Source of the DNA: a virus
Lineage: Duplodnaviria; Heunggongvirae; Uroviricota; Caudoviricetes
Virus record (IMG/VR): IMGVR_UViG_3300017971_000004
Coordinates: 64,001-128,000 of that record
DNA: 64,000 nt
Strand: one strand, 5' to 3'
The position numbers and the translations under genes are program-made. Position 1 is the stretch's first letter. Every line of letters starts with the position of its first letter. Below are positions 1,829 through 29,157 of the stretch, piece after piece. The notes below the pieces were generated by a model. It worked only from the letters and a program-made list of their open reading frames with translations. It was not told the origin of the DNA and made no database searches.

Positions 1829-1860
1829 TCTCAATATACTAAAAGCCCACGGGTGTCAAG
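1829..1860 (-). promoter_or_regulatory. sigma70-like promoter (minus strand: TTGACA - 17 nt - TATTGA) upstream of gene 1443..1796
   Basis: plus-strand tgtcaa at 1854-1859 and tcaata at 1831-1836; same architecture as promoters at 19.07, 27.13 and 30.26 kb. Confidence 0.45.
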
Positions 1861-1896
1861 TTCGAAGTTCAGGGCCGACCTCAACTTCATCTTCCC

Positions 1897-1966
1897 GGCA
1901 ACTTCGTCTCTCAAACGACTTCGTCTTTCAACGACTTCGTCTCTCAAACGACTTCGTCTCTCAGGG
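1897..1966. repeat. tandem repeat, 4 copies of a 17-bp unit CGACTTCGTCTCTCAAA
   Basis: read directly: caacttcgtctctcaaa cgacttcgtctttcaa cgacttcgtctctcaaa cgacttcgtctctcag. Confidence 0.85.
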
Positions 1967-1970
1967 CCAA

Positions 1971-2490
1971 GATGGGACCCGATGCTTTTTGTCGAACCCT
2001 CTCCAACCAGTTTCCACTTGCCAGAATGCTGGTGGGTACATCCGAGGAGTTGGTGACTTCAGTTCGAGTTGGCCAGACTCGGTTCGGATCGGCAACATCG
2101 TTCAACATGAGAACCTTGTCCAACCTTGGCCGAGGTTGCCGAAGTTCTCAAGTTGATGAAGTTGACTTCGTCACATCGGATGAACGTCGGCAATGATTGG
2201 CCAGGATGGGACCCAATTCTCCAGCTGGAGAAGTCGGCCAACTTCGTCTCCCAGAGCCAAGATGGGACCCGTACAAGTTCGGAAGATGGGACCCAATCGA
2301 AGTTCGGGAACTTGGTCGATATGGGACCCAAGAAAGCATAGAAGAAGCCTTCTTCGGGGGTTGGGGAAGTCGAAAAGGATCGTTCGAAGTTTTTGAGATG
2401 ATAGGGGTTGCCAGGATTGTCCAATGATTATGTGGAGTTGGACGGTATTGGTAGGATTGGAATCCGATATATTATCTGGGGATGGGACCC
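1971..2490. repeat. iteron-like array: six direct copies of (G/T)ATGGGACCC at about 1971, 2205, 2261, 2285, 2320 and 2481
   Basis: motif gatgggaccc read six times in the same orientation within a non-coding stretch. Confidence 0.8.
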
Positions 2491-3419
2491 AAATCTATGT
2501 GATCCAAAGCCCGGGATCGCGATCCGATAATCAGCTAGATCGACCCCCGGGGTCCAATAATCCCCAAGATCCGCCGAAATCAGCATAATCTTCGGCAAAC
2601 TTAGGAAGATTATCCAACTTCCAGCAAACTTCAGCCCAACTTCAGGACCAGCCGCCTTGTCGGATTGTCAACACTCAGGAAGATTCACCCTTGTCAGATT
2701 ATCAATAGGCAACACGATGGATTATCGGATTGACTTGCCCAACACCTGGCCAACTTCAGCCCAGGTTGGCGAGATGAATGCGCCCATCTTGGCCAGGATT
2801 GGCCCGAACTCGGGAACCTCTACAACCTATCCCTGGAGCCCAAGCTCCTTAAGCACGGACAGGACTTCACGGAGCTGCTTCGAGGAGCCGCCCAGACCAG
2901 CTCTGCGCCCCGCTACCAGCCATCGCCAGCGCCTGCCGGCCTTCCAGATGTACACCATATCGAACCTCCTCGTCGAGCCTATCAATCCTTCCCAAGGCGG
3001 GTCAACTTTTCGGCTCTCCGTTGGTCGGAGACCACATCTTCCGAACTTCGACCAAGTTCGGGAAAGGTTGGTGAAGATGGATCACGATCCGTCTGACGAG
3101 AGTGTATCGATTCTTGATGGAATTGCGCAATCGTTAACGGTCGGGCAAGTTGGGTGTTGACGAATCGTCAACTCTATTTCGAATATCAATGCGGTTCGAG
3201 GATGGATTTTCGGATTAGTTCAATGTTTGCGAGAGGTTGATGAAGTTCGGCTGGGGAAGTTGCCGAAGATTGTTCAAGGATCGCGGATTTTGGATCGGAT
3301 TGGGACGGATCGCGATCCGCGCGATCCGCTGGTCTGGTCGATTCTCACCTATATACTGAGAGCCTACTTGACGGGTACTTGATGGCCGCTTGCTTGCCAA
3401 TCCCGACCCAACCTCACCA

Positions 3420-3740
3420 ATCTCCGTCCACTTCGTTCCAATCTCGGCAACTTGCTCCCTCTATCCAATCCTTGGCCACTCCGTTCCGAACTTGGCAACT
3501 TCGAACCAACCTCATCTATCTGTCCAACTCCTTGGATGTACCCAGGCGAGTTTCTGGTGGGGGAAGTATCTACCGACTTCATCAAGCTTGCCGACTTACT
3601 CCAGCCGGCCAATCCTTGTCCACTTCGTTCGAGTGAAGCAACTTGGTCAACTTCATCCCTTCGAGCTAACTTCATCTATCTGGCCAACTCGAACTGAAGT
3701 CACCAACTCCTCGGATATACCCAGGCGAGTTTGGCTGATG
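3420..3740. repeat. imperfect direct repeat of about 140-160 bp (units about 3420-3560 and 3610-3740)
   Basis: shared segments ccacttcgttc..caacttg, cttcatctatctg(t/g)ccaactc, caactcct(t/c)ggat(g/a)tacccaggcgagttt. Confidence 0.7.
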
Positions 3741-4092
3741 AGCTATGAGGAGAGGGGATGTACTTACCATGGAGAGAATCTGCCGCGCCATCCTCCTTTT
3801 CAACCACCTGATGTATCGGGTGCAATCTTAGCTTGGACCGACGAAGTCGTTAGAACTTCGAAGTTGAAGTTCAGAAGTTCGGGACTTCGAGGTTCAGCAA
3901 GTTCGGGCCGTCATACAGACGGTTGCTCCAGGGTACCGGTCACGAGGATCTGAGAGACGAAGTCGTGACTTCCCACATTCCTTCGACCGCTTCGTCCACG
4001 GGATCCTTGAACTTGGGTTTGCTCCAGCTCCGGGCCGCGAGCTGGGCTCGAAGATCAGCCAGGTCTGTATCTTCGTCGTGCTCGCCTACCAA

Positions 4093-5318: not shown

Positions 5319-5640
5319 GTTTCTCCATCTCGAAGGTGATCACGAGCGCACCCCTGTCGGAGATGGTCGCCCTCGTTTTCACTCGGATCACCGAGACCGC
5401 CAGCTTGAAGTGAAGCAGGCTCGGATCCTCCTCGTCGACCCAGACGGGACATTCGTAGTCCTCCAGCCCGAGATCGACCGTGGCGAACCAGGCCTCTCCG
5501 ACCGGCGTCTCCTCCCAGGGCAATACCAGCGCGCCCCAGTCGGGACCGTATACCTTCCCGAGATCCGCCGGGTTCACCAGGATCGCGTCGCTCCCGGGCG
5601 TGTCAGGCCAGAGATCCGGAATCAATTGATCGTTCGACAT
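5311..5640 (-). CDS. hypothetical protein
   Basis: 109 aa ORF, overlaps neighbour by a few nt as in operons. Confidence 0.55.
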   Translation of the reverse strand: MSNDQLIPDLWPDTPGSDAILVNPADLGKVYGPDWGALVLPWEETPVGEAWFATVDLGLEDYECPVWVDEEDPSLLHFKLAVSVIRVKTRATISDRGALVITFEMEKHD

Positions 5641-5641
5641 C

Positions 5642-5770
5642 TCAGCTCTCCTGCTCTTCTCCTCCGTAGATGACCATCACCGGCTCGATCTCTTCGCCGG
5701 CTACGTCCTCGATGTATTTGATGCAGGCGATGCAATAATCATCAGCATCACTGAAGATTTCTTTTTTCAT
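5642..5770 (-). CDS. small hypothetical protein (42 aa, MKKEIFSDADDYCIACIKYIED...)
   Basis: internal ATG at about 5768-5770; upstream ORF extension is Arg-rich junk. Confidence 0.3.
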   Translation of the reverse strand: MKKEIFSDADDYCIACIKYIEDVAGEEIEPVMVIYGGEEQES

Positions 5771-8968: not shown

Positions 8969-9820
8969 TTATCGTCGTCCACGATGGCCCCCTCCTTCCA
9001 AACCGAGCGCCTTGCGCTTCGCCTCTTCAATGACCTTCCAAGCCTCGTAGTAGCGGTTGAAATGGTCTTCGAGGGCCATGATGAGCCGTCCCATGTTGGC
9101 CTTGTAGAAGCCGGCGCAATTGACGCAGCCGCACTCGACGATCTTCCATTCGTCGTCGACCATGCAGACGTCCATCACGAAGGCGTCGGCGAGCTGGAAG
9201 ACCTTGACCATCTTCTCGCAGAACTCTCGGGCTGCGGGATCGATAGCTCCGCTTTGCACGACCTGTGTCCCGAGCTTGTAGAGACTCCCCGTGACGATCT
9301 CACCGCCCACCACCCAGAAGCGATACTCCTTTTGGATCTTCTTCACCGAGGCGACCTGGATGGGCGTCAGACTGCTCAGCGACGAAGTGTGGCCGTCCGT
9401 GAGCTTCCGCTGCTGGAACTCGCGCCAGCCGTCCTCGTCGAACACCTGGCCGTTGAAATCCTTGGTATCAGCGCACGGGCGGATGAAATAGGCCTGCTTC
9501 TCCCACTTCCAGTCGTCCCGGAACTTCCGAAGCTCCGAGTCCCAGTTGAGAAGATGCTCCCGGTAATGGTTGCGATACACGAAGAAGTGATGATTCGCGT
9601 TCACCAGAACGCCCGGCACCCAGTCGAACTTCTTGGCCAACCGGACCATCTTGAGCGAGCCGAACACGAAGACATCCCGCCGCTTGGTCTGAACTTCGAA
9701 GTTCTCGACGAACGGCAGAACTTTGACGACTTCCCAGTCGAGCTGAAGACGCTCCAACGTCCGCGTCAGAGCATCATACCCTTCCTCGCGGAACACGTTC
9801 TCTTGTATCACATAGAACAT
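8969..9820 (-). CDS. ATP-grasp domain protein
   Basis: C-terminal ADAFVMDVCMVDDEWKIVECGCVNCAGFY resembles the ATP-grasp metal/ATP loop; start placed at MFYVIQ (9820), just downstream of promoter -10 at 9834-9839. Confidence 0.5.
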   Translation of the reverse strand: MFYVIQENVFREEGYDALTRTLERLQLDWEVVKVLPFVENFEVQTKRRDVFVFGSLKMVRLAKKFDWVPGVLVNANHHFFVYRNHYREHLLNWDSELRKFRDDWKWEKQAYFIRPCADTKDFNGQVFDEDGWREFQQRKLTDGHTSSLSSLTPIQVASVKKIQKEYRFWVVGGEIVTGSLYKLGTQVVQSGAIDPAAREFCEKMVKVFQLADAFVMDVCMVDDEWKIVECGCVNCAGFYKANMGRLIMALEDHFNRYYEAWKVIEEAKRKALGLEGGGHRGRR

Positions 9821-9833
9821 CTCTTGCGCTCTG

Positions 9834-9862
9834 ACTATATAGAGGAAAGTTTCCCCTGTCAA
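9834..9862 (-). promoter_or_regulatory. sigma70-like promoter (TTGACA - 17 - TATAGT) for the ATP-grasp gene
   Basis: plus-strand tgtcaa 9857-9862 and actata 9834-9839. Confidence 0.45.
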
Positions 9863-9885
9863 GCAGACAGATCGACAGCTTCTGC

Positions 9886-10271
9886 CTACTCCGGCTGCTT
9901 CACTTTCATCCGCTGGCTCACACTCTCGATGTGGTCGATGGTCTTGCCGGCATCGTTCAAGATGTAGGCTTCTCCGTCGAACACGATGTGTGTTTCCTGA
10001 TTCCCCTTGCGGACTTCGACTACTGTCGCACCGCTCCAGCTGCTCGGGCCGGAGATGAGTTCACCTCCACGACGACATTCCGAAGGCATCAACCAAACCC
10101 CATCTTCGGGTGGAACAGGAAGAATACCGTCCTCGGTCATCCGCTCCAAGTCCTCCGAACTGAGGTACGCCCAAATCTTGATGCTGTCACCTTCGCAATA
10201 GAACCAGGGCGTCTCTCGTGGACCTCCCCAACATCTGTACTTCGAGCTGGCGTCGATCTTGATGATCATGA
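9886..10271 (-). CDS. hypothetical protein (start at MIIKIDASSKY...)
   Basis: trimmed from ORF 9886..10365. Confidence 0.45.
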
Positions 10272-10430
10272 CCTTTCTCCTTTCTGCGGCCTTCTGGCTG
10301 ACTATCTTGCTGTCGATCTGTCTGGGGATAATATACAGGATTGGGAGATGGTGGAATCGAACCACTTGCCTCGTGGAGGAGCGGGTTTACAGCCCACCGC
10401 AGGCCCAGCCTGCCTTAGAGCACCTCCCGT

Positions 10431-10519
10431 TGCACGGGGTGGGATTCGAACCCACACTGTCTCTTAAGCGTTGCCCTGGGGCCTGAACCCAGCGCCTCTA
10501 CCAGTTGGGCTACCCGTGC
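10431..10519 (-). tRNA. tRNA-Leu(CAG)-like, class II (long, poorly paired variable arm)
   Basis: hand-folded: acceptor GCACGGG/CCCGTGC, T-arm GTGGG-TTCGAAT-CCCAC, anticodon stem CTGGG/CCCAG loop TTCAGGC. Confidence 0.5.
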
Positions 10520-10557
10520 GCTATCTAGATGCTAATTAGCGTCTAATTAGCATCTGG

Positions 10558-10630
10558 TGGACAGGGACGGAGTCGAACCGCCTACACCCGGAACTTCAAT
10601 CCGGTGCTCTACCAGTTGAGCTACCTGTCC
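10558..10630 (-). tRNA. tRNA-Phe(GAA)
   Basis: clean cloverleaf GGACAGG-TA-GCTC-AACTGGTA-GAGC-A-CCGGA-TTGAAGT-TCCGG-GTGTA-GGCGG-TTCGACT-CCGTC-CCTGTCC-A. Confidence 0.8.
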
Positions 10631-10632
10631 GT

Positions 10633-10705
10633 TGCGCGTGGAGGGATTCGAACCCCAACATCCGGACCCTCAGTCCGGCGACTCTGCCAGTTGGCCTACA
10701 CGCGC
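10633..10705 (-). tRNA. tRNA, anticodon GAG (Leu-type) in a class-I-length (73 nt) body
   Basis: acceptor GCGCGTG/CACGCGC, anticodon stem CCGGA/TCCGG loop CTGAGGG; weak D-stem and 4-nt variable loop. Confidence 0.5.
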
Positions 10706-10772
10706 GTTGTGTTTCACCTGCTGTCAGCAACCTCCGTTGTCGCTCACTTTCGAACGAATCTGATCAACCAAG

Positions 10773-10846
10773 TGCGACCGCCGGGAGTCGAACCCGGAAC
10801 ATCCTGCTTTTGAAACAGGCGACTCTGCCAGTTGGCCTACGGTCGC
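10773..10846 (-). tRNA. tRNA, anticodon CAA (Leu-type) in a class-I-length body
   Basis: acceptor GCGACCG/CGGTCGC, T-arm CCGGG-TTCGACT-CCCGG, anticodon stem CCTGT/GCAGG loop TTCAAAA; D-region identical to previous tRNA. Confidence 0.5.
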
Positions 10847-10850
10847 TCGA

Positions 10851-10923
10851 TGCGTCCGCCAGGATTCGAACCTGGAACCCCCGGTGTTTAAAGCCGGTGC
10901 CTCTGCCGTTGAGCCACGGACGC
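10851..10923 (-). tRNA. tRNA, anticodon UAA (Leu-type) in a class-I-length body
   Basis: acceptor GCGTCCG/CGGACGC, T-arm CCAGG-TTCGAAT-CCTGG, anticodon stem CCGGC/ACCGG (one C.A mismatch) loop TTTAAAC. Confidence 0.45.
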
Positions 10924-10927
10924 TCGG

Positions 10928-11001
10928 CAGGAGAGCCAGGATTCGAACCTGGGTTTGAGGACTTGGAAACCTCCGTGCTGGACCGCTCGCACTACTCTCC
11001 C
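10928..11001 (-). tRNA. tRNA-Trp(CCA)
   Basis: acceptor GGGAGAG/CTCTCCT, D-stem GTGC/GCAC, anticodon loop TTCCAAG. Confidence 0.55.
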
Positions 11002-11003
11002 GT

Positions 11004-11076
11004 GGTGACCGACGAGACTTGAACTCGCAACGACCGGGGCCACATCCCGGCGCTCTACCAGTTGAGCTACGGCCAC
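11004..11076 (-). tRNA. tRNA-His(GTG), discriminator C, no encoded G-1
   Basis: GTGGCCG-TA-GCTC-AACTGGTA-GAGC-G-CCGGG-ATGTGGC-CCCGG-TCGTT-GCGAG-TTCAAGT-CTCGT-CGGTCAC-C. Confidence 0.75.
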
Positions 11077-11078
11077 AG

Positions 11079-11163
11079 CGGAGGACGCAGGGCTCGAACC
11101 TGCACCGGGATGAACCGGACGACGCCTTAGCAGGGCGCTGCGATACCATTCTGCCAGTCCTCC
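11079..11163 (-). tRNA. tRNA-Ser(GCT), class II
   Basis: acceptor GGAGGAC/GTCCTCC, anticodon stem GCGCC/GGCGT loop CTGCTAA, long variable arm with CCGG-TTCAT-CCGG stem. Confidence 0.75.
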
Positions 11164-11228
11164 ACATTAAAATTTTCCTCCATTTTCTTTAATAGTTCGG
11201 ATCCTAATTAAAACTTTCTTCAATACTG
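11164..11228 (-). promoter_or_regulatory. AT-rich (about 28% GC) spacer inside the tRNA array, candidate internal promoter or processing region
   Basis: acattaaaattttcctccattttctttaatagttcggatcctaattaaaactttcttcaatactgag in an otherwise >60% GC region. Confidence 0.3.
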
Positions 11229-11301
11229 AGTCCCGAGCCGGAATCGAACCGGCGTCTGAGGATTTGCAGTCCCCCGCTTGAACCTGCTCAGCTACCGGGA
11301 C
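11229..11301 (-). tRNA. tRNA-Cys(GCA), discriminator U
   Basis: acceptor GTCCCGG/TCGGGAC, anticodon stem GGGGA/TCCTC loop CTGCAAA, T-arm GCCGG-TTCGATT-CCGGC. Confidence 0.7.
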
Positions 11302-11304
11302 AAG

Positions 11305-11376
11305 CAGGGCCGGGCGGAGTCGAACCGCCGTACTCGGGTCCAAAGCCCGATGCTCTACACGTTGAGCTACGACCCC
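11305..11376 (-). tRNA. tRNA-Gln(TTG)
   Basis: GGGGTCG-TA-GCTC-AACGTGTA-GAGC-A-TCGGG-CTTTGGA-CCCGA-GTAC-GGCGG-TTCGACT-CCGCC-CGGCCCT. Confidence 0.7.
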
Positions 11377-11378
11377 GG

Positions 11379-11468
11379 AGGAGGGCGAGGGATTCGAACC
11401 CCCACGCCGGGACAACGCCGACGACCGCGATTTTCGAGACCGCTCCAATACCGTTCTGGCAGCCCTCC
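11379..11468 (-). tRNA. tRNA-Ser(CGA), class II; 3-prime CC encoded and abutting next tRNA
   Basis: acceptor GGAGGGC/GCCCTCC, anticodon stem GCGGT/ATCGC loop CTCGAAA, long variable arm. Confidence 0.7.
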
Positions 11469-11513
11469 GATTGGTAAATCTTTCCATCACTTAACACTTC
11501 TTTACCGTTCGAG

Positions 11514-11600
11514 CGGAAGCGCCTGGACTCGAACCAGGACCACGGGAAACCGTGCTCTCGGCCTTCCAAGCCGGGGCCTTACCGTTGAGGCTACGCTTCC
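11514..11600 (-). tRNA. tRNA-Ser(GGA), class II
   Basis: acceptor GGAAGCG/CGCTTCC, D-stem GCCT/AGGC, anticodon loop TTGGAAG, variable arm CACGG-TTTC-CCGTG, T-arm CCTGG-TTCGAGT-CCAGG. Confidence 0.65.
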
Positions 11601-11738
11601 GAACTGGAAACGATTAGCTTAGATAAAGCAGTGATTGATGCTGGATAAACGAGGAGAGACACCAGAGGCGGGGAGCCTTGGCGGTGGGGGCGATCATCTT
11701 TCCGATTCGCTTTCGACGTTTCATCGGTCTCTCCTCGG

Positions 11739-11812
11739 TCCGGGCGAGAGGATTTGAACCTCCAACCTCTAGATCCCGAATCTAGCGTGCTACCAGATTG
11801 CACTACACCCGG
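11739..11812 (-). tRNA. tRNA-Pro(CGG)
   Basis: CCGGGTG-TA-GTGC-AATCTGGTA-GCAC-G-CTAGA-TTCGGGA-TCTAG-AGGTT-GGAGG-TTCAAAT-CCTCT-CGCCCGG-A. Confidence 0.75.
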
Positions 11813-11942
11813 ATAGTCTACAGCCCCTCGCGGGGTGGTGTAGGCTTCCGGGCTGGTCGTGCTGTCTGGTTCTTCTTCATCGCACGCTTCTTCGCGCCGC
11901 TACGCGGCGAAGTCTCAAATATAGAAGAAGCCCTCAAAGAGA

Positions 11943-12437
11943 TCAAGCAGAAAGTTCAGAGTCGAGCTTTTCCTTCAAGCCGGTGCCGCTCTCCGTGGTC
12001 ATCCCCCACTGGATGTCCTCATAGGGAATCTCGTTCTCGCGCATCAGCTCCTGGATCAACGCGCGGCCTACTCCCTTTCCCTGCGCCTCGGGCTTGACCT
12101 CGATCATCTTGAGATGCGTCTCGCCGCGCCAGAGAGTGTAGTCCACGTAGCCGAGCCCTTCGCCGGTCTTTGCGTCCTTGGCGACGATCCAGGCGTCCCA
12201 CTGGTCGCCGAGGGCATCACCCCCGTGCTCGAAGGCGAGGGCGTCGCCCTGCTGGGCGTTCCGACCCGTTACGAAAGGAAGCAGCCGAAGAAGAAGCATC
12301 CACTGAGAGAACGCGTTCTCCTCTTCGAAGCGTCTTTTCTCCCGCTCGATGGCCCGCTCAGGTTCATCCTCTTCGATCTCGGGCACCTCGTCACCGATGC
12401 GACGAAGGGCTTCCGTGTTCAGTCCGTGGAGCCGCAT
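11943..12437 (-). CDS. GNAT-family N-acetyltransferase with conserved N-terminal leader MRLHGLNTEALRRI
   Basis: acetyl-CoA binding motif MIEVKPEAQGKGVGRALIQELMRE; start trimmed to the MRLHGLN methionine. Confidence 0.6.
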   Translation of the reverse strand: MRLHGLNTEALRRIGDEVPEIEEDEPERAIEREKRRFEEENAFSQWMLLLRLLPFVTGRNAQQGDALAFEHGGDALGDQWDAWIVAKDAKTGEGLGYVDYTLWRGETHLKMIEVKPEAQGKGVGRALIQELMRENEIPYEDIQWGMTTESGTGLKEKLDSELSA

Positions 12438-13090
12438 CAGTCCTCCCAGACCGAATCGATGAGGTCGTAGATGAGATCGACCTGCTCGTCGGCGAAGTGC
12501 CAGCGGACATCGATGTTGTCGTCGGCCCATTTCTTCGGATCGCCGTCTAGCTCCTCGGACATCGCGCACCAGTCGGCCACCATCTCCGCGATGTCGAGGT
12601 CGCCCATCCCGGTACCGTCGATGACCTCGTCGGGAGCTGCATCCCGGTCGTCCTCGTCGACCACATCGAGCGTCTCCATCTGATGATACTCAGGGTGATG
12701 CTTGCTGTTCAGGATGTGGTGCTGCGTGGCGACGTTGATCGCGTCCTCCATCCCCCCGGGCAGCTCGCACTCGATGCCCTCATCCTCGCACTTGTAGCGC
12801 CAGGTCAGCCAGATGTACGGCTCCAGCTCGGGCTCTTCGAACTTGATCTGGTCGTGTTCTTCACCGCGCTCGATCAGGCCGTCGAAACCGTCCCAGGCAT
12901 CCTCGATCTTCTTGCAGTACTTCTGCACGCGCTCGATGTGCTTGTTGGTCCGGTCGTAGAAGTGCTGTTCCATCTCGTCGGTGATCTGCTGAGCGACACG
13001 CCGAAGGCTGTCAAGCGCGCCCTGGACAGTCATGCCACTACGCATTCCGACCCGGATGATCGCGTTCCGGTCGAGTCCCCGAAGTCTCAT
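12437..13090 (-). CDS. acidic hypothetical protein with N-terminal leader MRLRGLDRNAIIRVG
   Basis: start trimmed to MRLRGLD; ATGA overlap with previous gene. Confidence 0.5.
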   Translation of the reverse strand: MRLRGLDRNAIIRVGMRSGMTVQGALDSLRRVAQQITDEMEQHFYDRTNKHIERVQKYCKKIEDAWDGFDGLIERGEEHDQIKFEEPELEPYIWLTWRYKCEDEGIECELPGGMEDAINVATQHHILNSKHHPEYHQMETLDVVDEDDRDAAPDEVIDGTGMGDLDIAEMVADWCAMSEELDGDPKKWADDNIDVRWHFADEQVDLIYDLIDSVWED

Positions 13091-13374
13091 CCCTCTTTCA
13101 CCGGAGGAAGGTCCCGCAGGACTTCCCACGCCTCGTTGAAGATCCAAGGAGTCTCATCGTATCGTCCATTCTGCTGCTTGAGTAGCACCACGTAACAGTG
13201 ATCATCGATGGCGATCTGAGCACGACCTCCGTACTCGTCTGCCAGCGTAGCTACGGGCTCGAACTCCGCGCCCTCCGGATCATCGTTGTCCCAGATAGCT
13301 CGATCATCGGTCTCCACTTGCACGTATCTCGCGATACGTCGAAGTGACTCTCGGTTGAGACCGTGGAGTCTCAC
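13087..13374 (-). CDS. small hypothetical protein with N-terminal leader (GTG start) MRLHGLNRESLRRIARY
   Basis: 95 aa ORF; GTG start verified by hand at 13372-13374. Confidence 0.5.
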   Translation of the reverse strand: MRLHGLNRESLRRIARYVQVETDDRAIWDNDDPEGAEFEPVATLADEYGGRAQIAIDDHCYVVLLKQQNGRYDETPWIFNEAWEVLRDLPPVKEG

Positions 13375-13802
13375 ATTCCGCCCCCGAACAGACGCTTCAC
13401 GACGTCGAGCGGGAGCACCGTCTCCAACCCGAAGGTCGGGTCGTCCAGGTCGGCCTGGAAGAAGATACCCGGCTGGAACGGGATGAGACCGTGCCCCAAG
13501 ATGATTGCGGCAACCTTCTTCTGACGCTCCACGAGCGCTTCCAGCCAGCGCTCGGCTCCGTTGAAGATGATGAACTTGCCCTGCTCCTCCCAGACCTCTA
13601 CGGGGGCCTGAGAACCGGCTGAGCCTACTCCGTGAAGGATACTGTCGGCAGCTTCGTCGAGCGAATAGATGTCGACCGCCATGTCGGTCAACGGGATGTC
13701 GATGATCTTTGGAGGCGGCATCAGCTCCCCTACCAGACGTTCTCCCATCTTCTCCAAGATGAACTCGTCAACACTTCGGTATGGTCTTGGACGGTTTCTC
13801 AT
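13371..13802 (-). CDS. hypothetical protein
   Basis: 143 aa ORF. Confidence 0.5.
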   Translation of the reverse strand: MRNRPRPYRSVDEFILEKMGERLVGELMPPPKIIDIPLTDMAVDIYSLDEAADSILHGVGSAGSQAPVEVWEEQGKFIIFNGAERWLEALVERQKKVAAIILGHGLIPFQPGIFFQADLDDPTFGLETVLPLDVVKRLFGGGM

Positions 13803-13835
13803 GAAGATAAATATACAGGAAGGTGGGTCGGAAAT

Positions 13836-14117
13836 CTAAAGCTTGGGAGGTTCGGCCACCGATCGAGCCCAGGCACGGGCAGCGACATGTTGCTGTTCGA
13901 CGCGCTCATGAACGATGCGAGCGACTTCGTCGTAGGAGTCTCCGGCGTCGCCATCGACGCCTTCTGTGTAGACGACGTCCTTCTTGCGATGACCGTTCCG
14001 AATAGTCGCCCCCGGCCCGTAGGCAGCCACGACGGCGGCAGCGTCTTCCGGCAGCTTGCAGGCCGCAACGTACTCGCCTTCGGGGGTGTAGACTTTGAAC
14101 TGCGGTGCTCCTGCCAT
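13836..14117 (-). CDS. hypothetical protein
   Basis: 93 aa ORF. Confidence 0.5.
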   Translation of the reverse strand: MAGAPQFKVYTPEGEYVAACKLPEDAAAVVAAYGPGATIRNGHRKKDVVYTEGVDGDAGDSYDEVARIVHERVEQQHVAARAWARSVAEPPKL

Positions 14118-14118
14118 C

Positions 14119-14493
14119 TTAGCCCTCTTTAGAGAGTCTGTTGCATCCCCAGCACAGGTCCGTGATCGGGTCTTCCCCGTCGATCAAGTTGCCGCAGCAT
14201 CGACAACGAACGGGATGGAGATATCCTCGGTACAAGCCGTCGAGCATCGAGGCAACGATGCGCCCGTCTTCCGTCAACTCCACGGGACGAAGTCCGCTGG
14301 CACAAGGCGCTCCGATGACAACCAGGCCGAGCTTCTCCAGTTGCTCGTGGCAAGGAGCGTGCCCACGCCGCTGGTAGTTCTCGAACCCCGGATGCTTTCG
14401 CACCTGCTCGATCACCTTCAGGTGGCGGAGCGCCGTCCCGGTCGTATCAGGATAGCTACGCGAGAACAGGTCAATCGCTACGGATTGATGGTT
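14119..14493 (-). CDS. hypothetical protein with C-terminal zinc-ribbon (CRCCGN...CWGCN)
   Basis: start at internal MNHQSVAID; two Cys pairs at C-terminus. Confidence 0.45.
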   Translation of the reverse strand, partial: NHQSVAIDLFSRSYPDTTGTALRHLKVIEQVRKHPGFENYQRRGHAPCHEQLEKLGLVVIGAPCASGLRPVELTEDGRIVASMLDGLYRGYLHPVRCRCCGNLIDGEDPITDLCWGCNRLSKEG

Positions 14494-14495
14494 CA

Positions 14496-14687
14496 TCAGC
14501 CGTTCTCCTTCTTCCGGATGATCTTGACGGGCGTCCACTGCGAACCGAAGTTCGAGCCGAGTCCGCTCTCCCACTGGACGCCGATCACGTCGCCGTGGGG
14601 GTAACGGCTCCAGGCACGCGGATCAACCACGATGCCCAAGACCCCCGTGTCAGTACGGATGACTTCTTCTCCTTTCTGGAACTCCAT
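14496..14687 (-). CDS. small hypothetical protein (MEFQKGEEVIRTDTGVLGIVVD...)
   Basis: trimmed from ORF 14496..14873. Confidence 0.45.
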   Translation of the reverse strand: MEFQKGEEVIRTDTGVLGIVVDPRAWSRYPHGDVIGVQWESGLGSNFGSQWTPVKIIRKKENG

Positions 14688-14893
14688 CAGTCGAGCCCCA
14701 ACCGGTGCGCGACCGCCTCGCACTCGTGACAAGTTATACCGTCCTTCAGCTGGCCGGCACGGTTGCGCTTGACACCTGCCAGCGTCGGACGACTGGGGTC
14801 CGCCGCCGATTCGCAGACGTGCTCCCAAAGGAGCGCGCTGAGAGGCTTCGCCCACTTGGGACGATTCTTCCACTTCGGAGCCTTCTTTGTCAT
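14687..14893 (-). CDS. small hypothetical protein
   Basis: 68 aa; GGAGG ribosome-binding site 8 nt upstream of ATG (plus-strand cctcc 14902-14906). Confidence 0.5.
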   Translation of the reverse strand: MTKKAPKWKNRPKWAKPLSALLWEHVCESAADPSRPTLAGVKRNRAGQLKDGITCHECEAVAHRLGLD

Positions 14894-14933
14894 GTCATTG
14901 CCCTCCTGTTGGTGTCATTCTTGATACTCTCTC

Positions 14934-14964
14934 TATATAGCACAGAGTCTACCCGATAAGCAAG
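14934..14964 (-). promoter_or_regulatory. sigma70-like promoter (TTGCTT - 18 - TATATA) for gene 14687..14893; copy 1 of a 30-bp repeated motif
   Basis: plus tatata 14934-14939, aagcaa about 14958-14963; motif repeated at 15265-15300. Confidence 0.4.
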
Positions 14965-14973
14965 CAAATTCTA

Positions 14974-15007
14974 GATAAAAAAGGCCGATGCTCAAAAGCA
15001 CCGGCCT
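14974..15007 (-). terminator. rho-independent terminator (minus strand)
   Basis: GGCCGGTGCTTTTGAGCATCGGCC hairpin followed by TTTTTTATC in minus orientation. Confidence 0.55.
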
Positions 15008-15276
15008 GGTTAGATCTTCACATGTAGATCGCGGGCGCAACCCGCATGCCACCTCTAAGTATCCGGTACTTGAGTTAAGTACCGGATCGTGGCGCGGGCG
15101 TGTTGGTGCGCCACAAAAACCCCTTTTTTCGACTCTGATCGGTGCCGGGAGCTAGCGGCTGTCAACCGTGAGTATTCCTGATTGACTCGAAGCGCCGGGG
15201 GAGGAGGCGGCGATGTGATCTTCGAGACCAACCAAGCAAGGACACCGATCATCTTCTTTGGGTCTCCCTTTGACAC
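14975..15276 (-). ncRNA. candidate structured non-coding transcript (about 300 nt) between promoter copy 2 and the 14974-15007 terminator
   Basis: three consecutive hairpins: GCGGGCGCAACCCGC (15038-15052), 10-bp perfect stem ATCCGGTACT-TGAGTTA-AGTACCGGAT (15058-15088), GTGGCGC...GCGCCAC (15094-15120); no credible ORF. Confidence 0.3.
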
Positions 15277-15282
15277 CCTCTC

Positions 15283-15312
15283 TGTATAGCAGATAGTCCA
15301 CCACGAAGTCAA
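15283..15312 (-). promoter_or_regulatory. sigma70-like promoter (TTGACT - 18 - TATACA), copy 2 of the repeated promoter motif
   Basis: plus tgtata 15283-15288 and agtcaa 15307-15312; shares ctctct(a/g)tatagca core with 14921-14945. Confidence 0.4.
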
Positions 15313-15336
15313 GCTAATCCGAAAAAAGAGAAGCTG

Positions 15337-15634
15337 CTACAGAGTCTCATCAACGACGTTGCCCAAGGTATCCAGGGCAATGTCCTTGATGAGTTCCTGA
15401 AGCTCTCGGAAACGAGGATGAGAAGTGAACCGTTCCTCGGCTCGGGCCAAGGTAATGCCTCCTCTCGGAAGCTTGTTCCAGTCGACGGCTGAAGACCGAG
15501 GCAGCCTGCGCGGCAGCTTGCGGAAGCCCCCATTCAAGATCTGTCAAGACATCGTCCCAGTCGACCTCGAATCCTTCGCGCTCGATGCGCTCCTTCTCTT
15601 CCTGATAGCCGCCACCGAACGGATCACTCGACAT
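15337..15634 (-). pseudogene. hypothetical gene with apparent +1 frameshift at a G5/C5 homopolymer (about 15525-15529)
   Basis: N-terminal MSSDPFGGGYQEEKERIEREGFEVDWDDVLTDLEWG in one frame, C-terminal ...AVDWNKLPRGGITLARAEERFTSHPRFRELQELIKDIALDTLGNVVDETL* in the adjacent frame. Confidence 0.35.
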
Positions 15635-16178
15635 CGGGCTCCTCCATCACTTCATGGGGCTCTTCGTCAATGCGATGCATCTCGAACTCGACGCCGGCCT
15701 CGTTGCAGACTTCTTCGAAACCTTCGATCACCTTGTCAGTGTCCTCCCAGATCTCCACCCGTGTCGGCTGATGTTCCTCGATGAGTTGACGGAGCATCTC
15801 GGGCTTCCAGACTTCTGAGCGAGAGCCCTCCGGGGCGAGCCGGATCTCATCGAAGTCGAGATCTTGTTGATCGAGCAGCTCGTTGATCCGATCTTCGAAC
15901 TTCTCGAAGCGACCAGTCACGAGCACGAACGCCGCGTCAGCTGCTTGCTCCGACTCGTGAGCGTCTCGAAGAACCTTTTGCACCCACCAGTCGGTCGTGG
16001 GCTCCTCGGGCACCTGAGGCTCCTCCAGGCTCTTCTCGTTGGACCACCATCCTCGCTCGGGCCACCCTTTCGGTTTCTCGGGACTACGGAACAGAGTGCC
16101 GTCGAAGTCGTACAGATGAAGCACCTTTGCTCCCGCGAGGCGGCGGAGTCCTTGCTTGGTAATGCCGAGAACGATCAT
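15624..16178 (-). CDS. HAD-superfamily phosphatase-like protein
   Basis: motif I LYDFDGTLF, motif II VLVTGR; acidic C-terminus. Confidence 0.55.
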   Translation of the reverse strand: MIVLGITKQGLRRLAGAKVLHLYDFDGTLFRSPEKPKGWPERGWWSNEKSLEEPQVPEEPTTDWWVQKVLRDAHESEQAADAAFVLVTGRFEKFEDRINELLDQQDLDFDEIRLAPEGSRSEVWKPEMLRQLIEEHQPTRVEIWEDTDKVIEGFEEVCNEAGVEFEMHRIDEEPHEVMEEPDVE

Positions 16179-21787: not shown

Positions 21788-22456
21788 TCAGATGCCGAAA
21801 GCATCCAGCTGGTCCTTCTTGCTGTTGTCGATCCAGTAGAACCGAGTGAAGCCTTTCCCGTCGTACTGCCGTCGCAGCGCGCGGTCGAGAACTTCTCCGA
21901 CCCAGTAGAACAGACAGTAGTCGGTGTAATCGGTACCCTTCCCGTCGAAGGAGAACCTCCGAACGAATTCGCCGATCTCGATGGGTGGACGCTCTCGGAA
22001 CAGGCGCATCCGTTTGATCGAGCCGGCGAAACCCACGCGCAGCAGGAAGACTGCCACCCCGGTCGGATGCAGAATGCTCAAGGACTTCCGAACGAACTCC
22101 TCGGCCAGAGAGTACGGCGGGTTCGTAGCGATGATGTCCCATCCTCCGTGCTCACGGACTTCAGAAGGAGTGTACTGCTCCCAGGGGGCCGTCAAGAAGT
22201 CCGTCCGATATCGGCGCTGCGGTTCCTCGGTGACTACCGACCAGTCGTCGATGATGTCGATACCTACCATCTCGCCGTCGTAGCCGATGTCGGCAGCCGA
22301 CTTGATAAAGGGGTAGGTGAGGCCGCATCCGGGTTCGAGGATGTGGAGCTTGTTCTCGTAGGGATGGAAGTCAGTGGCCCGCAAGAAGGCCCACTGCGCG
22401 TAGCGATACGGGGTCGGATAGAAGTCCCGTCCGCCCCCAGATGGATTTCTAGGCAT
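21788..22456 (-). CDS. N6-adenine DNA methyltransferase, gamma class
   Basis: motif X DFYPTP, motif I LEPGCGLTYPF, motif IV NPPY (IIATNPPYS) in gamma-class order; start at internal MPRNPSGGG. Confidence 0.7.
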   Translation of the reverse strand: MPRNPSGGGRDFYPTPYRYAQWAFLRATDFHPYENKLHILEPGCGLTYPFIKSAADIGYDGEMVGIDIIDDWSVVTEEPQRRYRTDFLTAPWEQYTPSEVREHGGWDIIATNPPYSLAEEFVRKSLSILHPTGVAVFLLRVGFAGSIKRMRLFRERPPIEIGEFVRRFSFDGKGTDYTDYCLFYWVGEVLDRALRRQYDGKGFTRFYWIDNSKKDQLDAFGI

Positions 22457-22604
22457 CGTTTCCTCCTGCACGCAATATACGGGATTGAAGATCGTTGACC
22501 CTGAAGAGAAGCTCACCGGACGGAGGGCAATCCGCATCCCAACTTCGGGTGACAAGTCCGAAGTTGGTGGTGAACCTCTCTTCGGGATCAACGATCCCGA
22601 GAGA

Positions 22605-23228
22605 TCAGAACGTACACTCCCCGTTCTCGGGGTCGCAGGTCACGCAGCCGCCCATGCACTGGACGGCGTACTCGTAGAAGCTCGTACAGACCGATCCCGG
22701 GTACATCTCCGGGCAATTGATGTACGTCTCCCAGGTGCCGGTCCAGGAGGCTGTGCAGCTGTCACTGGTGCCGTCGCAGTACTTGACCGCATCCATCTTC
22801 TGGAAGAGGTCCCCGCACTCCTCGTCGCACTGGTAGAAGGCCTCTTCCTCGCAGATGACCTCGTCCTCGGGTTCGAAGAAGTAGCACCCGTCGCAGCAGG
22901 GACCGGCCATGCATTCGCATCCGGTGTCGGTGTCAATATCGCTGTCCGTGCCGGTATCTGTATCGGTATAAGTATCCGTATCTGTAGAGGAATCAGTATC
23001 CGTATCAGCGTCCGTGTCGGTGTCGAGATCAGTCCCCGTATCCGTGGAAGTGTCCGTTTCTACATCGGAATCGGTGTCGGTGTCAGTATCTGTATCGGTG
23101 TCGGTATCCGTGTCGGAGTCGAGATCGGTCCCCGCGTCGTCATCCCATCCGCCGTCTGCCGGAGCCTCAATGCTGGTGTCATAGCAGCCGGCCAACATCA
23201 GAGCCATGCTCATGATCCAGGTTTTCAT
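22605..23228 (-). CDS. lipoprotein with long (Asp-Thr)n repeat region and C-terminal 14-Cys domain
   Basis: lipobox MALMLAGC; DTDTDTDTDTDTDSDVETDTSTDTGTD...; hexamer repeats visible at 22930-23130. Confidence 0.6.
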   Translation of the reverse strand: MKTWIMSMALMLAGCYDTSIEAPADGGWDDDAGTDLDSDTDTDTDTDTDTDTDSDVETDTSTDTGTDLDTDTDADTDTDSSTDTDTYTDTDTGTDSDIDTDTGCECMAGPCCDGCYFFEPEDEVICEEEAFYQCDEECGDLFQKMDAVKYCDGTSDSCTASWTGTWETYINCPEMYPGSVCTSFYEYAVQCMGGCVTCDPENGECTF

Positions 23229-28891: not shown

Positions 28892-29097
28892 TTTTTCATT
28901 TACCTTCTTCTTGAAGCTGTTCCATCCAACGATTAACCAGCGCACTCCAAACTTCATCAGATTTATATGTAGGAGTTAAAGGAATCTCCCCAAATACCTC
29001 GAAAAAACGAATCTTGAATTTTTTGGGGGACAATAACTGACTTGTGGTAAGTTTAAGTTTTTTTTCCTTCTAAGTAGAACTCGTAAAAAGATGGCTG

Positions 29098-29113
29098 AGT
29101 GTTCTTGAACACT
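29098..29113. promoter_or_regulatory. perfect palindrome AGTGTTC-TT-GAACACT inside a 200-bp AT-rich island, candidate operator
   Basis: read directly at 29098-29113; island 28958-29157 is about 35% GC. Confidence 0.35.
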
Positions 29114-29157
29114 ATTTTGTCAAATACAATAGAAACAAGATCATATCTACGCATCGC

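Follow-up and report, generated by a model that had tools for sequence, protein, structure and literature searches.

The window analyzed here is a 64,000-nucleotide (nt) stretch (positions 64,001 to 128,000 of IMG/VR record IMGVR_UViG_3300017971_000004) of a contig of about 188 kb that represents an uncultured phage-like genome with a G+C content of about 58%. It encodes a DNA polymerase A, a SNF2 helicase and an SbcC-like ATPase, and nearly all of its credible genes lie on the minus strand. Our subject is a 443-nt gap at 14894-15336 that separates two small genes, p99 and p68, and has a G+C content of 0.52, slightly below that of its flanks. The gap holds two copies of one promoter, P2 at its upstream end and P1 at its downstream end, with about 300 nt of strongly folding sequence and an intrinsic terminator between them, and the original prediction, made from the letters of the sequence, had proposed it as the source of a candidate small RNA (sRNA). 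In the direction of transcription the locus is organized as follows (aa, amino acids; bp, base pairs; UTR, untranslated region).

15624-16178, minus strand: HAD_SAK_1/polynucleotide-kinase-phosphatase-like gene, which precedes p99
15337-15634, minus strand: p99, the upstream gene, 99 aa, ending at 15337
15243-15324, minus strand: promoter copy P2, with -35 TTGACT at 15312-15307, an 18-nt spacer and -10 TATACA at 15288-15283
15260-15278, minus strand: predicted 5'-terminal stem-loop of the P2 transcript, GGGUGUC-AAAGG-GAGACCC
15136-15251, minus strand: predicted 5' domain, which contains a long hairpin (15236-15177) and a small hairpin (15172-15152)
15193-15212, minus strand: predicted apical hairpin, CGCCG/CGGCG, with the 10-nt C-rich loop CCUCCUCCCC at 15207-15198
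15117-15131, minus strand: A6-G4-U5 tract AAAAAAGGGGUUUUU, predicted to be single-stranded and joining the two halves of the RNA
15088-15115, minus strand: hairpin H3, GUGGCGC/GCGCCAC, with a 12-nt loop, -11.6 kcal/mol
15061-15087, minus strand: hairpin H4, a perfect 11-bp stem AUCCGGUACUU/AAGUACCGGAU with a 5-nt loop, -15.3 kcal/mol
15010-15058, minus strand: H5, a composite imperfect hairpin region with alternative folds near GCGGG/CCCGC and GAUCU/AGAUC
14976-15007, minus strand: intrinsic terminator, an 11-pair stem (7 G-C) with a 4-nt loop and the U-run tail TTTTTATCTA
14894-14975, minus strand: promoter P1 and the p68 5'UTR, with -35 TTGCTT at 14963-14958, an 18-nt spacer and -10 TATATA at 14939-14934
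14687-14893, minus strand: p68, the downstream gene, 68 aa, without a known domain, the first gene of the unit served by P1

The two copies of a short motif that the original prediction had placed at the ends of the gap are indeed there, at 14922-14944 and 15271-15293, and they are the only matches in the 64 kb when up to three mismatches are allowed (zero expected). The similarity, which had been described as a 30-bp motif, is real but considerably longer: P1, P2 and the promoter of the p68 homolog in a related locus, L081 (promoter L081_Pb), align over about 80 columns with a mean column identity of 77%. This shared unit consists of the -35 hexamer, the spacer, the -10 hexamer, a purine-rich start and a 5' stem-loop, and in P1 and L081 it also includes a Shine-Dalgarno sequence, AGGAGGG, and a start codon (ATG at 14893 in the case of P1). 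Given the homologous alignment over some 80 nt, P1 is the ortholog of the L081 p68 promoter, and P2 is a paralogous copy of the whole unit of promoter and 5'UTR. It lies right after the p99 stop codon, and its predicted start is a G at about 15277-15275. It retains the -35, the -10 and the 5' stem-loop, which has counterparts in P1 and in the L081 ortholog (GGUGUCA-GAGG-UGACACC in the latter), and the Shine-Dalgarno sequence AGGAGGG now reads AGAAGAU. Such a pattern is as expected if transcription was maintained and translation was not, and to judge from the aligned copies P2 looks as if it had been selected in this way.

Both copies belong to a family of promoters. An alignment of eight sites (P1, P2, 1857 and 9862 in the window, one site in L080, two in L081 and one in L084) shows that they are built alike, with TTGnnn, a spacer of 15-18 nt (17-18 nt in seven of them), TATAnn and a start rich in purines. 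Every site is on the gene strand, and six lie directly before the ribosome-binding site and start codon of a gene, among them the window sites 1857 and 9862, each of which is followed by a ribosome-binding site and an ATG. P2 does not lie before a gene in this way, and neither does the L080 site, after which comes a leader of about 400 nt. A profile derived from the eight sites matches only those sites in the window and the loci searched. In all three syntenic relatives a promoter of the same build stands immediately after the p99 stop codon, and L081 carries its second one ahead of the p68 homolog.

L080, after p99: TTGACG-17-TATACA
L081, after p99: TTGCTT-18-TATATA
L084, after p99: TTGACG-17-TATATA

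Position and sequence are therefore conserved before genes in relatives, as one would ask of a sigma-70-type promoter. In their hexamers P1 and P2 agree with this type only in part: they have the spacing of 16-18 nt and the A at position 2 of the -10 hexamer, but an A instead of the T at position 6.

The terminator hairpin occupies 15007-14982 (stem 14982-14992/14997-15007, -19.7 kcal/mol) immediately ahead of P1, and it has the G+C-rich stem-loop followed by a U-run on the transcribed strand that defines a Rho-independent terminator. Among the gene-strand candidates from consensus scans of 60 kb, it is the only one that combines a long G+C stem with an uninterrupted U-run. Hence, the stretch from P2 to the terminator is the only complete promoter-to-terminator cassette seen in the window. 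Since p99 has no convincing terminator of its own, transcripts from upstream probably end at 15007-14982 too.

The 309-nt minus-strand RNA has a predicted folding energy of -127.7 kcal/mol, which corresponds to z = -5.3 in comparison with dinucleotide shuffles, versus z = -2.9 for the plus strand. When 619 windows of equal size from the genome are ranked after regression on G+C content, the stretch is among the 0.5% with the most structure. The 5' domain is closed by a long-range stem of 9-11 bp (an inverted-repeat search gives a perfect 9 bp, 15136-15144 with 15243-15251), and in the predicted fold this stem buries the only ATG of the interval. The long hairpin inside the domain has a 7-bp core (15186-15192/15220-15226) and carries the CCUCCUCCCC loop on top. 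H3 has a stem of 7-8 bp, with a 7-bp core at 15089-15095/15108-15114 in the inverted-repeat search, and is separated by 1 nucleotide from H4, in which 15061-15071 pair with 15077-15087.

No part of the gap resembles a gene. All of its open reading frames (ORFs) have negative codon log-odds and a flat G+C content over the three codon positions (GC1/2/3), whereas the third-position value (GC3) of real genes is about 0.72. Gene callers placed no gene in the gap on independently assembled, identical contigs. An 85-aa ORF, which includes a 65-aa version starting at the ATG, matches no Pfam or PHROG family, and no homolog of it turned up among 5.8 billion proteins. Neither the coding statistics, nor a ribosome-binding site, nor homologs of a small protein-coding gene were found, and ARAGORN detected no tRNA or transfer-messenger RNA in 14894-15336. 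In all of this the original prediction held up well: it had described strong hairpins with a perfect 10-bp stem (it is H4, with 11 bp), a canonical hairpin and U-run terminator, and no credible ORF. The overall architecture that it proposed, a gene-strand promoter followed by about 300 nt without a gene, a terminator and a second promoter for the next gene, is supported by the promoter family in the three syntenic relatives, by the ortholog of P1 in L081 and by a terminator that is the only one of its kind in 60 kb.

The reading we favor, tentatively and at slightly under an even chance, is that the interval forms a non-coding transcription unit of its own that is specific to this lineage, a 'moron' lacking a protein. 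In this scheme, a duplicated host-type promoter and 5'UTR unit, which normally drives the p68 gene, would have become P2. Host RNA polymerase would start at about 15276 and stop at about 14978, and the resulting RNA of about 300 nt would be composed of a protective 5' stem-loop, the 5' domain, three to four further hairpins, and the terminator hairpin with its U-tail. Read-through from the HAD-p99 operon would end at the same terminator, so that the interval would double as the 3'UTR of this operon and as an insulator. What the sequence predicts, a promoter and a terminator of its own with no translated ORF between them, is what is asked of an sRNA gene. We consider it probable that a discrete RNA is made from the interval; that such an RNA has a selected function is possible, with the balance leaning against it.

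In a more speculative extension, the RNA would most likely act in trans as a base-pairing sRNA, the exposed CCUCCUCCCC loop of which would pair with G-rich ribosome-binding sites of the AGGAGGG type in phage or host messenger RNAs (mRNAs) and lower their translation. The loop is predicted to be unpaired, is complementary to the AGGAGGG-type Shine-Dalgarno sequences of the phage, and is our candidate seed. That the function uses specifically this anti-Shine-Dalgarno mechanism appears quite unlikely to us. In cofolding, the start region of p68 has an unremarkable energy of -11, and the best pairing within the window joins 15247-15232 to codons 7-12 of the HAD mRNA (16160-16145), with 13 nt perfectly paired and 15 of 16 overall. 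Target predictions by RNAduplex were discarded as they contained unrealistic long-range duplexes.

A number of observations weigh against the non-coding unit and its proposed activity. Binding of the RNA to the 87 start regions of the window (mean cofold energy -6.7) is no better than that to random 60-mers (mean -6.6). The HAD pairing is marginal, being reached by 1% of shuffles and constituting one of 14 comparisons. A length of 300 nt is large for an sRNA that acts by base pairing. The promoters themselves are imperfect: both -10 hexamers, TATACA and TATATA, have an A in place of the conserved T at position 6, for which reason a sigma-70 consensus scan omits P1 and P2 on the minus strand, and the -35 of P1 matches the consensus at only three of six positions. 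Furthermore, the motif also scores as a promoter on the plus strand, where the consensus scan reads copy 2 as a sigma-70-like TTGACA-16-GATAGT (15270-15297) with 10 of 12 positions matched. The minus-strand promoters of the original prediction are supported by the family in relatives, but the missing T and the plus-strand alternative had been overlooked.

The comparison with relatives is no kinder. The three closest relatives with synteny (L080, L081 and L084) all lack the element, which leaves neither covariation nor any sign of purifying selection in its favor, and all contigs that carry it (L012-L014) are identical in the region compared. A search with nhmmer for the RNA body in loci L001-L059 returned only the window copy, as did two covariance models, R1 for the 5' domain and R2 for the hairpin block, in a search space of 602 kb, made up of the window and 55 related loci. 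The covariance search for homologs of the hairpin block in related phages, proposed together with the original prediction, thus came back empty, and the sequence or structural conservation (covariation) expected of an sRNA was found neither in the three syntenic relatives nor by these models. At gathering thresholds, Rfam 15 reports only tRNAs in the whole window, and none of the families 6C, RsaE, T-box, riboswitches, CRISPR repeats, Y RNA, ROOL and GOLLD. Relaxing the threshold to E<=10 on 14800-15450 added only sub-threshold matches driven by the terminator, the best of which, P26, scores 19 bits against a threshold of 36 owing to the terminator hairpin. GenBank phages, searched in near and distant modes, gave no DNA match.

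Other searches were similarly unproductive. Blastn found no homolog of the RNA body, and shuffle-controlled Smith-Waterman alignment showed no similarity of it to the L080 leader, the DnaJ genes, p68 and its neighbors, or L059. The motif and degenerate promoter patterns retrieved from IMG/VR either nothing or four unrelated low-GC phages, and the 11-bp hairpin pattern had no match in GTDB genomes. Searches with HAD in IMG/VR and JGI metagenomes yielded at most 51% identity and no synteny, DUF5662 loci were not syntenic, and the p143 alignment found nothing in IMG/VR and GTDB. Relatives of the DNA polymerase exist at 55% identity. The syntenic relatives came only from protein searches with p99 and p68, and their protein identities to the window are as follows.

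L080: HAD 74%, p99 62%, p143 81%
L081-L083: HAD 81%, p99 55%, p143 76%
L084: p99 77%; HAD and p143 are not covered

What follows p99 differs in each of these genomes. It is directly a DnaJ-like gene of 239 aa in L081, an unrelated, strongly structured leader of about 400 nt and then a DnaJ-like gene in L080, another gene in L084, and the structured stretch of about 300 nt with its terminator in the window. Four different contents in the window and three relatives indicate a hypervariable accessory site just downstream of p99. On a larger scale, the HAD and GNAT genes are adjacent in another relative, L015, which makes the 3.5 kb between them in the window, the candidate included, accessory. 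By the searches made here, the cargo of the window at the post-p99 site is an orphan. The window has no DnaJ-like gene anywhere, and tblastn detects no remnant of one in the gap; a DnaJ-like pseudogene was rejected as an identity of the interval for want of such similarity. As a candidate sRNA, the interval retains its promoter, its terminator and its non-coding nature, but the conservation in relatives that would have strengthened the call is missing, with no homolog and different content at the site. It is best filed as an orphan phage-encoded non-coding transcription unit or candidate sRNA.

Two structures in the relatives deserve mention in their own right. The L080 leader (5340-5745), between the conserved promoter and the DnaJ-like gene, is closed by a terminal helix of about 25 bp (AGAAGAAGCGAUGAGAGGGGCGACCGG/CCGGUCGCCCUUCUCAUCCCUUCUUCU) and has a minimum free energy of -150.5 kcal/mol (z = -2.9). 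By eye, it holds UUCG- and GNRA-type tetranucleotides (GAAA, GUAA, GCAA) that are possible hairpin caps; Rfam gives no match for it, and neither the window nor the other loci contain a homolog. In L081, the 5'UTR of the DnaJ-like gene contains a small hairpin and U-run between the promoter and the ATG (5336-5362, GTGACTGGAGAGGTCAC CATTTTTT). Its loop includes a Shine-Dalgarno-like GGAGAGG, and the hairpin could be an attenuator.

The same variability of the site, with four contents after p99 in four related genomes, would also be seen if the interval were a non-functional scar and insulator, an explanation that we rate as somewhat unlikely. Here recombination would have removed or replaced an accessory (DnaJ-like) gene and left behind a duplicated promoter and foreign filler. 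The only selected functions would be those of the terminator, which ends the HAD-p99 operon, and of P1, which restarts transcription for p68, and the P2 transcript would be a by-product. The orphan, unconserved RNA body and the lack of significant target complementarity fit this account, and the promoter duplication could be a footprint of recombination. However, the -35, -10 and 5' stem-loop of P2 are intact despite the decayed Shine-Dalgarno sequence, a structure in the top 0.5% with a perfect 11-bp hairpin is unexpected of random filler, and a terminator alone needs about 35 nt, not 300. A function for the RNA in cis, to which we assign a small chance, would be that of a leader that modifies RNA polymerase or refolds to allow read-through into the p68 operon. 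It would act on transcripts from P2 and from upstream, either as a put-like processive antiterminator or as an attenuator, while P1 supplies unmodified transcription. The put RNA of HK022, about 70 nt long with two bulged stem-loops and a triplex, makes RNA polymerase read through downstream terminators (PMC9378689). H3 and H4 (15115-15061), two adjacent stem-loops with a phage promoter before them and a terminator after them, resemble put in layout, which is the only level at which they were compared. Moreover, GAUCGGUGUC, GGCACCGAUC and the terminator arm GGCCGGUGCU share CGGUG/CACCG cores from which an alternative pairing could form, and in L080 the corresponding site is occupied by a long structured leader with a gene right after it. 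Unlike those of put, however, the stems of H3 and H4 are perfect, lacking the bulges described, the two add up to 54 nt where put has about 70, and the terminator is followed by a promoter. The alternative antiterminator pairing reaches only 6-7 bp versus the 11-bp stem of the terminator, the position of P1 between terminator and gene makes a regulated leader redundant, and Rfam holds no riboswitch, T-box or leader family match.

A small protein or leader peptide is a comparably slight prospect. It would be encoded by the 65-codon ORF (MIGVLAWLVSKITSPPPPPALRV...) that opens with the ATG at 15252 and stops at 15055, and the C-rich loop would then be just the code for five prolines (the PPPPP run of the CCGCCUCCUCCCCCG stretch), which might stall ribosomes. 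The ATG is where the start codon of the ancestral unit lay, and GGGAGA stands about 10 nt upstream of it. But the ORF no longer has the strong Shine-Dalgarno sequence of the ancestral unit, its ATG is base-paired within the closing stem, and it crosses H3 and the 11-bp hairpin. Its codon log-odds of -0.10 and GC3 of 0.59 contrast with +0.1 to +0.3 and about 0.72 in neighboring small genes; it lacks the homologs, family matches and gene calls discussed above; and by our own estimate an ORF of this length arises by chance in about a quarter of such GC-rich intervals. The plus-strand signals raise the thought, more doubtful still, that the motif acts on that strand or on both. The left copy (TTGATA-16-CAGAGT, 14921-14948) would then transcribe antisense across the whole structured interval and a sense/antisense RNA pair would result. 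Besides copy 2, the L081 ortholog read in antisense (CTGACA-16-TAGAAT, 6169-6142) also scores 10 of 12, the plus-strand fold is itself better than chance, and bidirectional initiation is possible at the three promoter copies with a palindromic 5' stem-loop. Against this, the antisense signal is limited to three sites of the Pb type and is explained by that palindrome (TGACAC), whereas the gene-strand signal is present at all eight family sites, six of them directly before a gene start. CAGAGT is a poor -10, the plus strand has no canonical terminator, and nearly all credible genes are on the other strand. Finally, the perfect 11-bp palindrome, the other inverted repeats and the slightly lowered G+C content could mark a DNA-level element, that is a replication origin, a packaging site or a protein-binding platform, with the hairpins as cruciforms or binding sites. 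This is very improbable because the features are strand-asymmetric (the terminator works in one direction and folding is stronger on the minus strand); there are also no iterons and no AT-rich unwinding element, and a much better origin-like candidate exists at 1860-4000.

Several further identities were considered and found no support. A type I or type III toxin-antitoxin system lacks a hydrophobic toxin ORF and repeats, and a CsrB-like sponge lacks a repeated loop motif. A retron, an omega-RNA and a CRISPR-repeat mimic lack a partner gene and a match to the CRISPR direct repeats of Rfam, and a bacterial Y RNA next to RNA-repair genes lacks a Ro protein among the 30 window proteins scanned as well as an Rfam match.

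The favored non-coding unit can be compared with several known systems. Phage morons, known from the genomics of lambdoid phages, are independent promoter-to-terminator units inserted between conserved phage genes. Like them, the candidate has a host-type promoter and an intrinsic terminator of its own, lies between two genes that in relatives are adjacent or differently separated, and is absent at the same site in the closest relatives. Unlike classical morons, it carries no protein gene, and its promoter is a duplicate of that of the neighboring gene rather than foreign. The sRNAs 6C/B11 of Actinobacteria and RsaE/RoxS of Firmicutes use C-rich loops to target G-rich ribosome-binding sites. 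The candidate shares with 6C and RsaE a 3'-terminal intrinsic terminator and an exposed C/U-run loop that complements the Shine-Dalgarno sequence, but it has a single C-rich loop instead of several, is much longer, and has no Rfam match even at E<10. In enterobacteria, DapZ and MicL are 3'UTR-type sRNAs made from an internal promoter, and they share the terminator of the upstream mRNA. Similarly, the operon and P2 transcripts would share the terminator at 15007-14982 and the same 3' sequence, but the promoter of the candidate lies after the stop codon, not inside the gene. Mapping of transcript ends has uncovered small RNAs in virulent and jumbo Pseudomonas phages (PMC10914365, PMC9163698, PMC8244752, PMC7318152, PMC11512511; reviewed in PMC12197685). 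The candidate resembles these in being non-coding and intergenic, in belonging to a large phage, and in being bounded by a promoter and an intrinsic terminator. They were detected experimentally, whereas the candidate is predicted from sequence; none of the described families has sequence in common with it, and most of these RNAs are shorter than its length of about 300 nt.

The surroundings of the gap show some features of their own. The region 8969-16178 forms a cluster with an RNA-repair or tRNA flavor that comprises an R2K-type ATP-grasp protein (8969-9862), 14 tRNA genes, a GNAT acetyltransferase, DUF5662 and the HAD_SAK_1/polynucleotide-kinase-phosphatase-like protein; ARAGORN places the tRNA genes as an array at 10342-11812. 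The upstream gene p99 is split in this assembly by a 2-bp deletion between 15488 and 15487, which breaks the 99-aa p99 into ORFs of 94 and 66 aa. Contigs from other samples, identical apart from this, have the missing bases ('CA' on the minus strand). The independently assembled contigs L012-L014 are identical to one another over the region compared. The truncated product of 94 aa is recorded for a 188,555-bp JGI contig, and the loss is an error of the assembly or else genuine variation.

Elsewhere in the window, a stretch of about 2.1 kb at 1860-4000 has no credible ORF, a G+C content of about 0.52 and dense dispersed short repeats of 29 families. Among these are five 15-23-mers containing GATGGGACCC, seven 12-mers similar to GGTTGGGGAAGT and three copies of GGATCGCGATCCG, and tandem 17/33-nt repeats are located at 1884-1963. 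The stretch ends at a promoter of the same family as P1 and P2 (1857-1826), which drives a gene with its start at 1796. An origin or iteron field is one possibility for the stretch, a regulatory region another. Folding is strongest in the genome at 22352-22763 (windows with residual z of -3.6 and -4.4), and just downstream of these windows, at 22915-23128, a 12-nt periodic repeat (TCGGTGTCGGTATC-like) lies inside an ORF. An intergenic stretch of 200 nt at 28958-29157 has a G+C content of only 0.34, in a genome of 58% G+C.

If the interval is only a scar with a terminator, it would be an instance of ordinary phage mosaicism. The conserved promoter family can also serve, in practice, to annotate transcription units across this group of uncultured phages. 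To us, the most attractive leads are the origin by duplication of a promoter and 5'UTR and the anti-Shine-Dalgarno loop. In their boldest and improbable form, this large high-GC phage would have turned the duplicated unit into an RNA gene of its own, whose product of about 300 nt mimics the 16S anti-Shine-Dalgarno sequence (CCUCCU) in an exposed loop and, as a general competitor or repressor at ribosome-binding sites, reprograms host or early-phage translation. In the other version, its paired stem-loops would work as a factor-independent antiterminator of the put kind, beyond the lambdoid phages. Under both, the RNA would found a new family of phage RNAs. More generally, if the RNA is made and functional, it would be a new and unrelated addition to the still small set of phage regulatory RNAs. 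Its history would also illustrate clearly how an RNA gene can originate, by duplication of a promoter and 5'UTR, loss of the ribosome-binding site, and gain of a structured body and a terminator, all of which would have taken place at a hypervariable accessory site.

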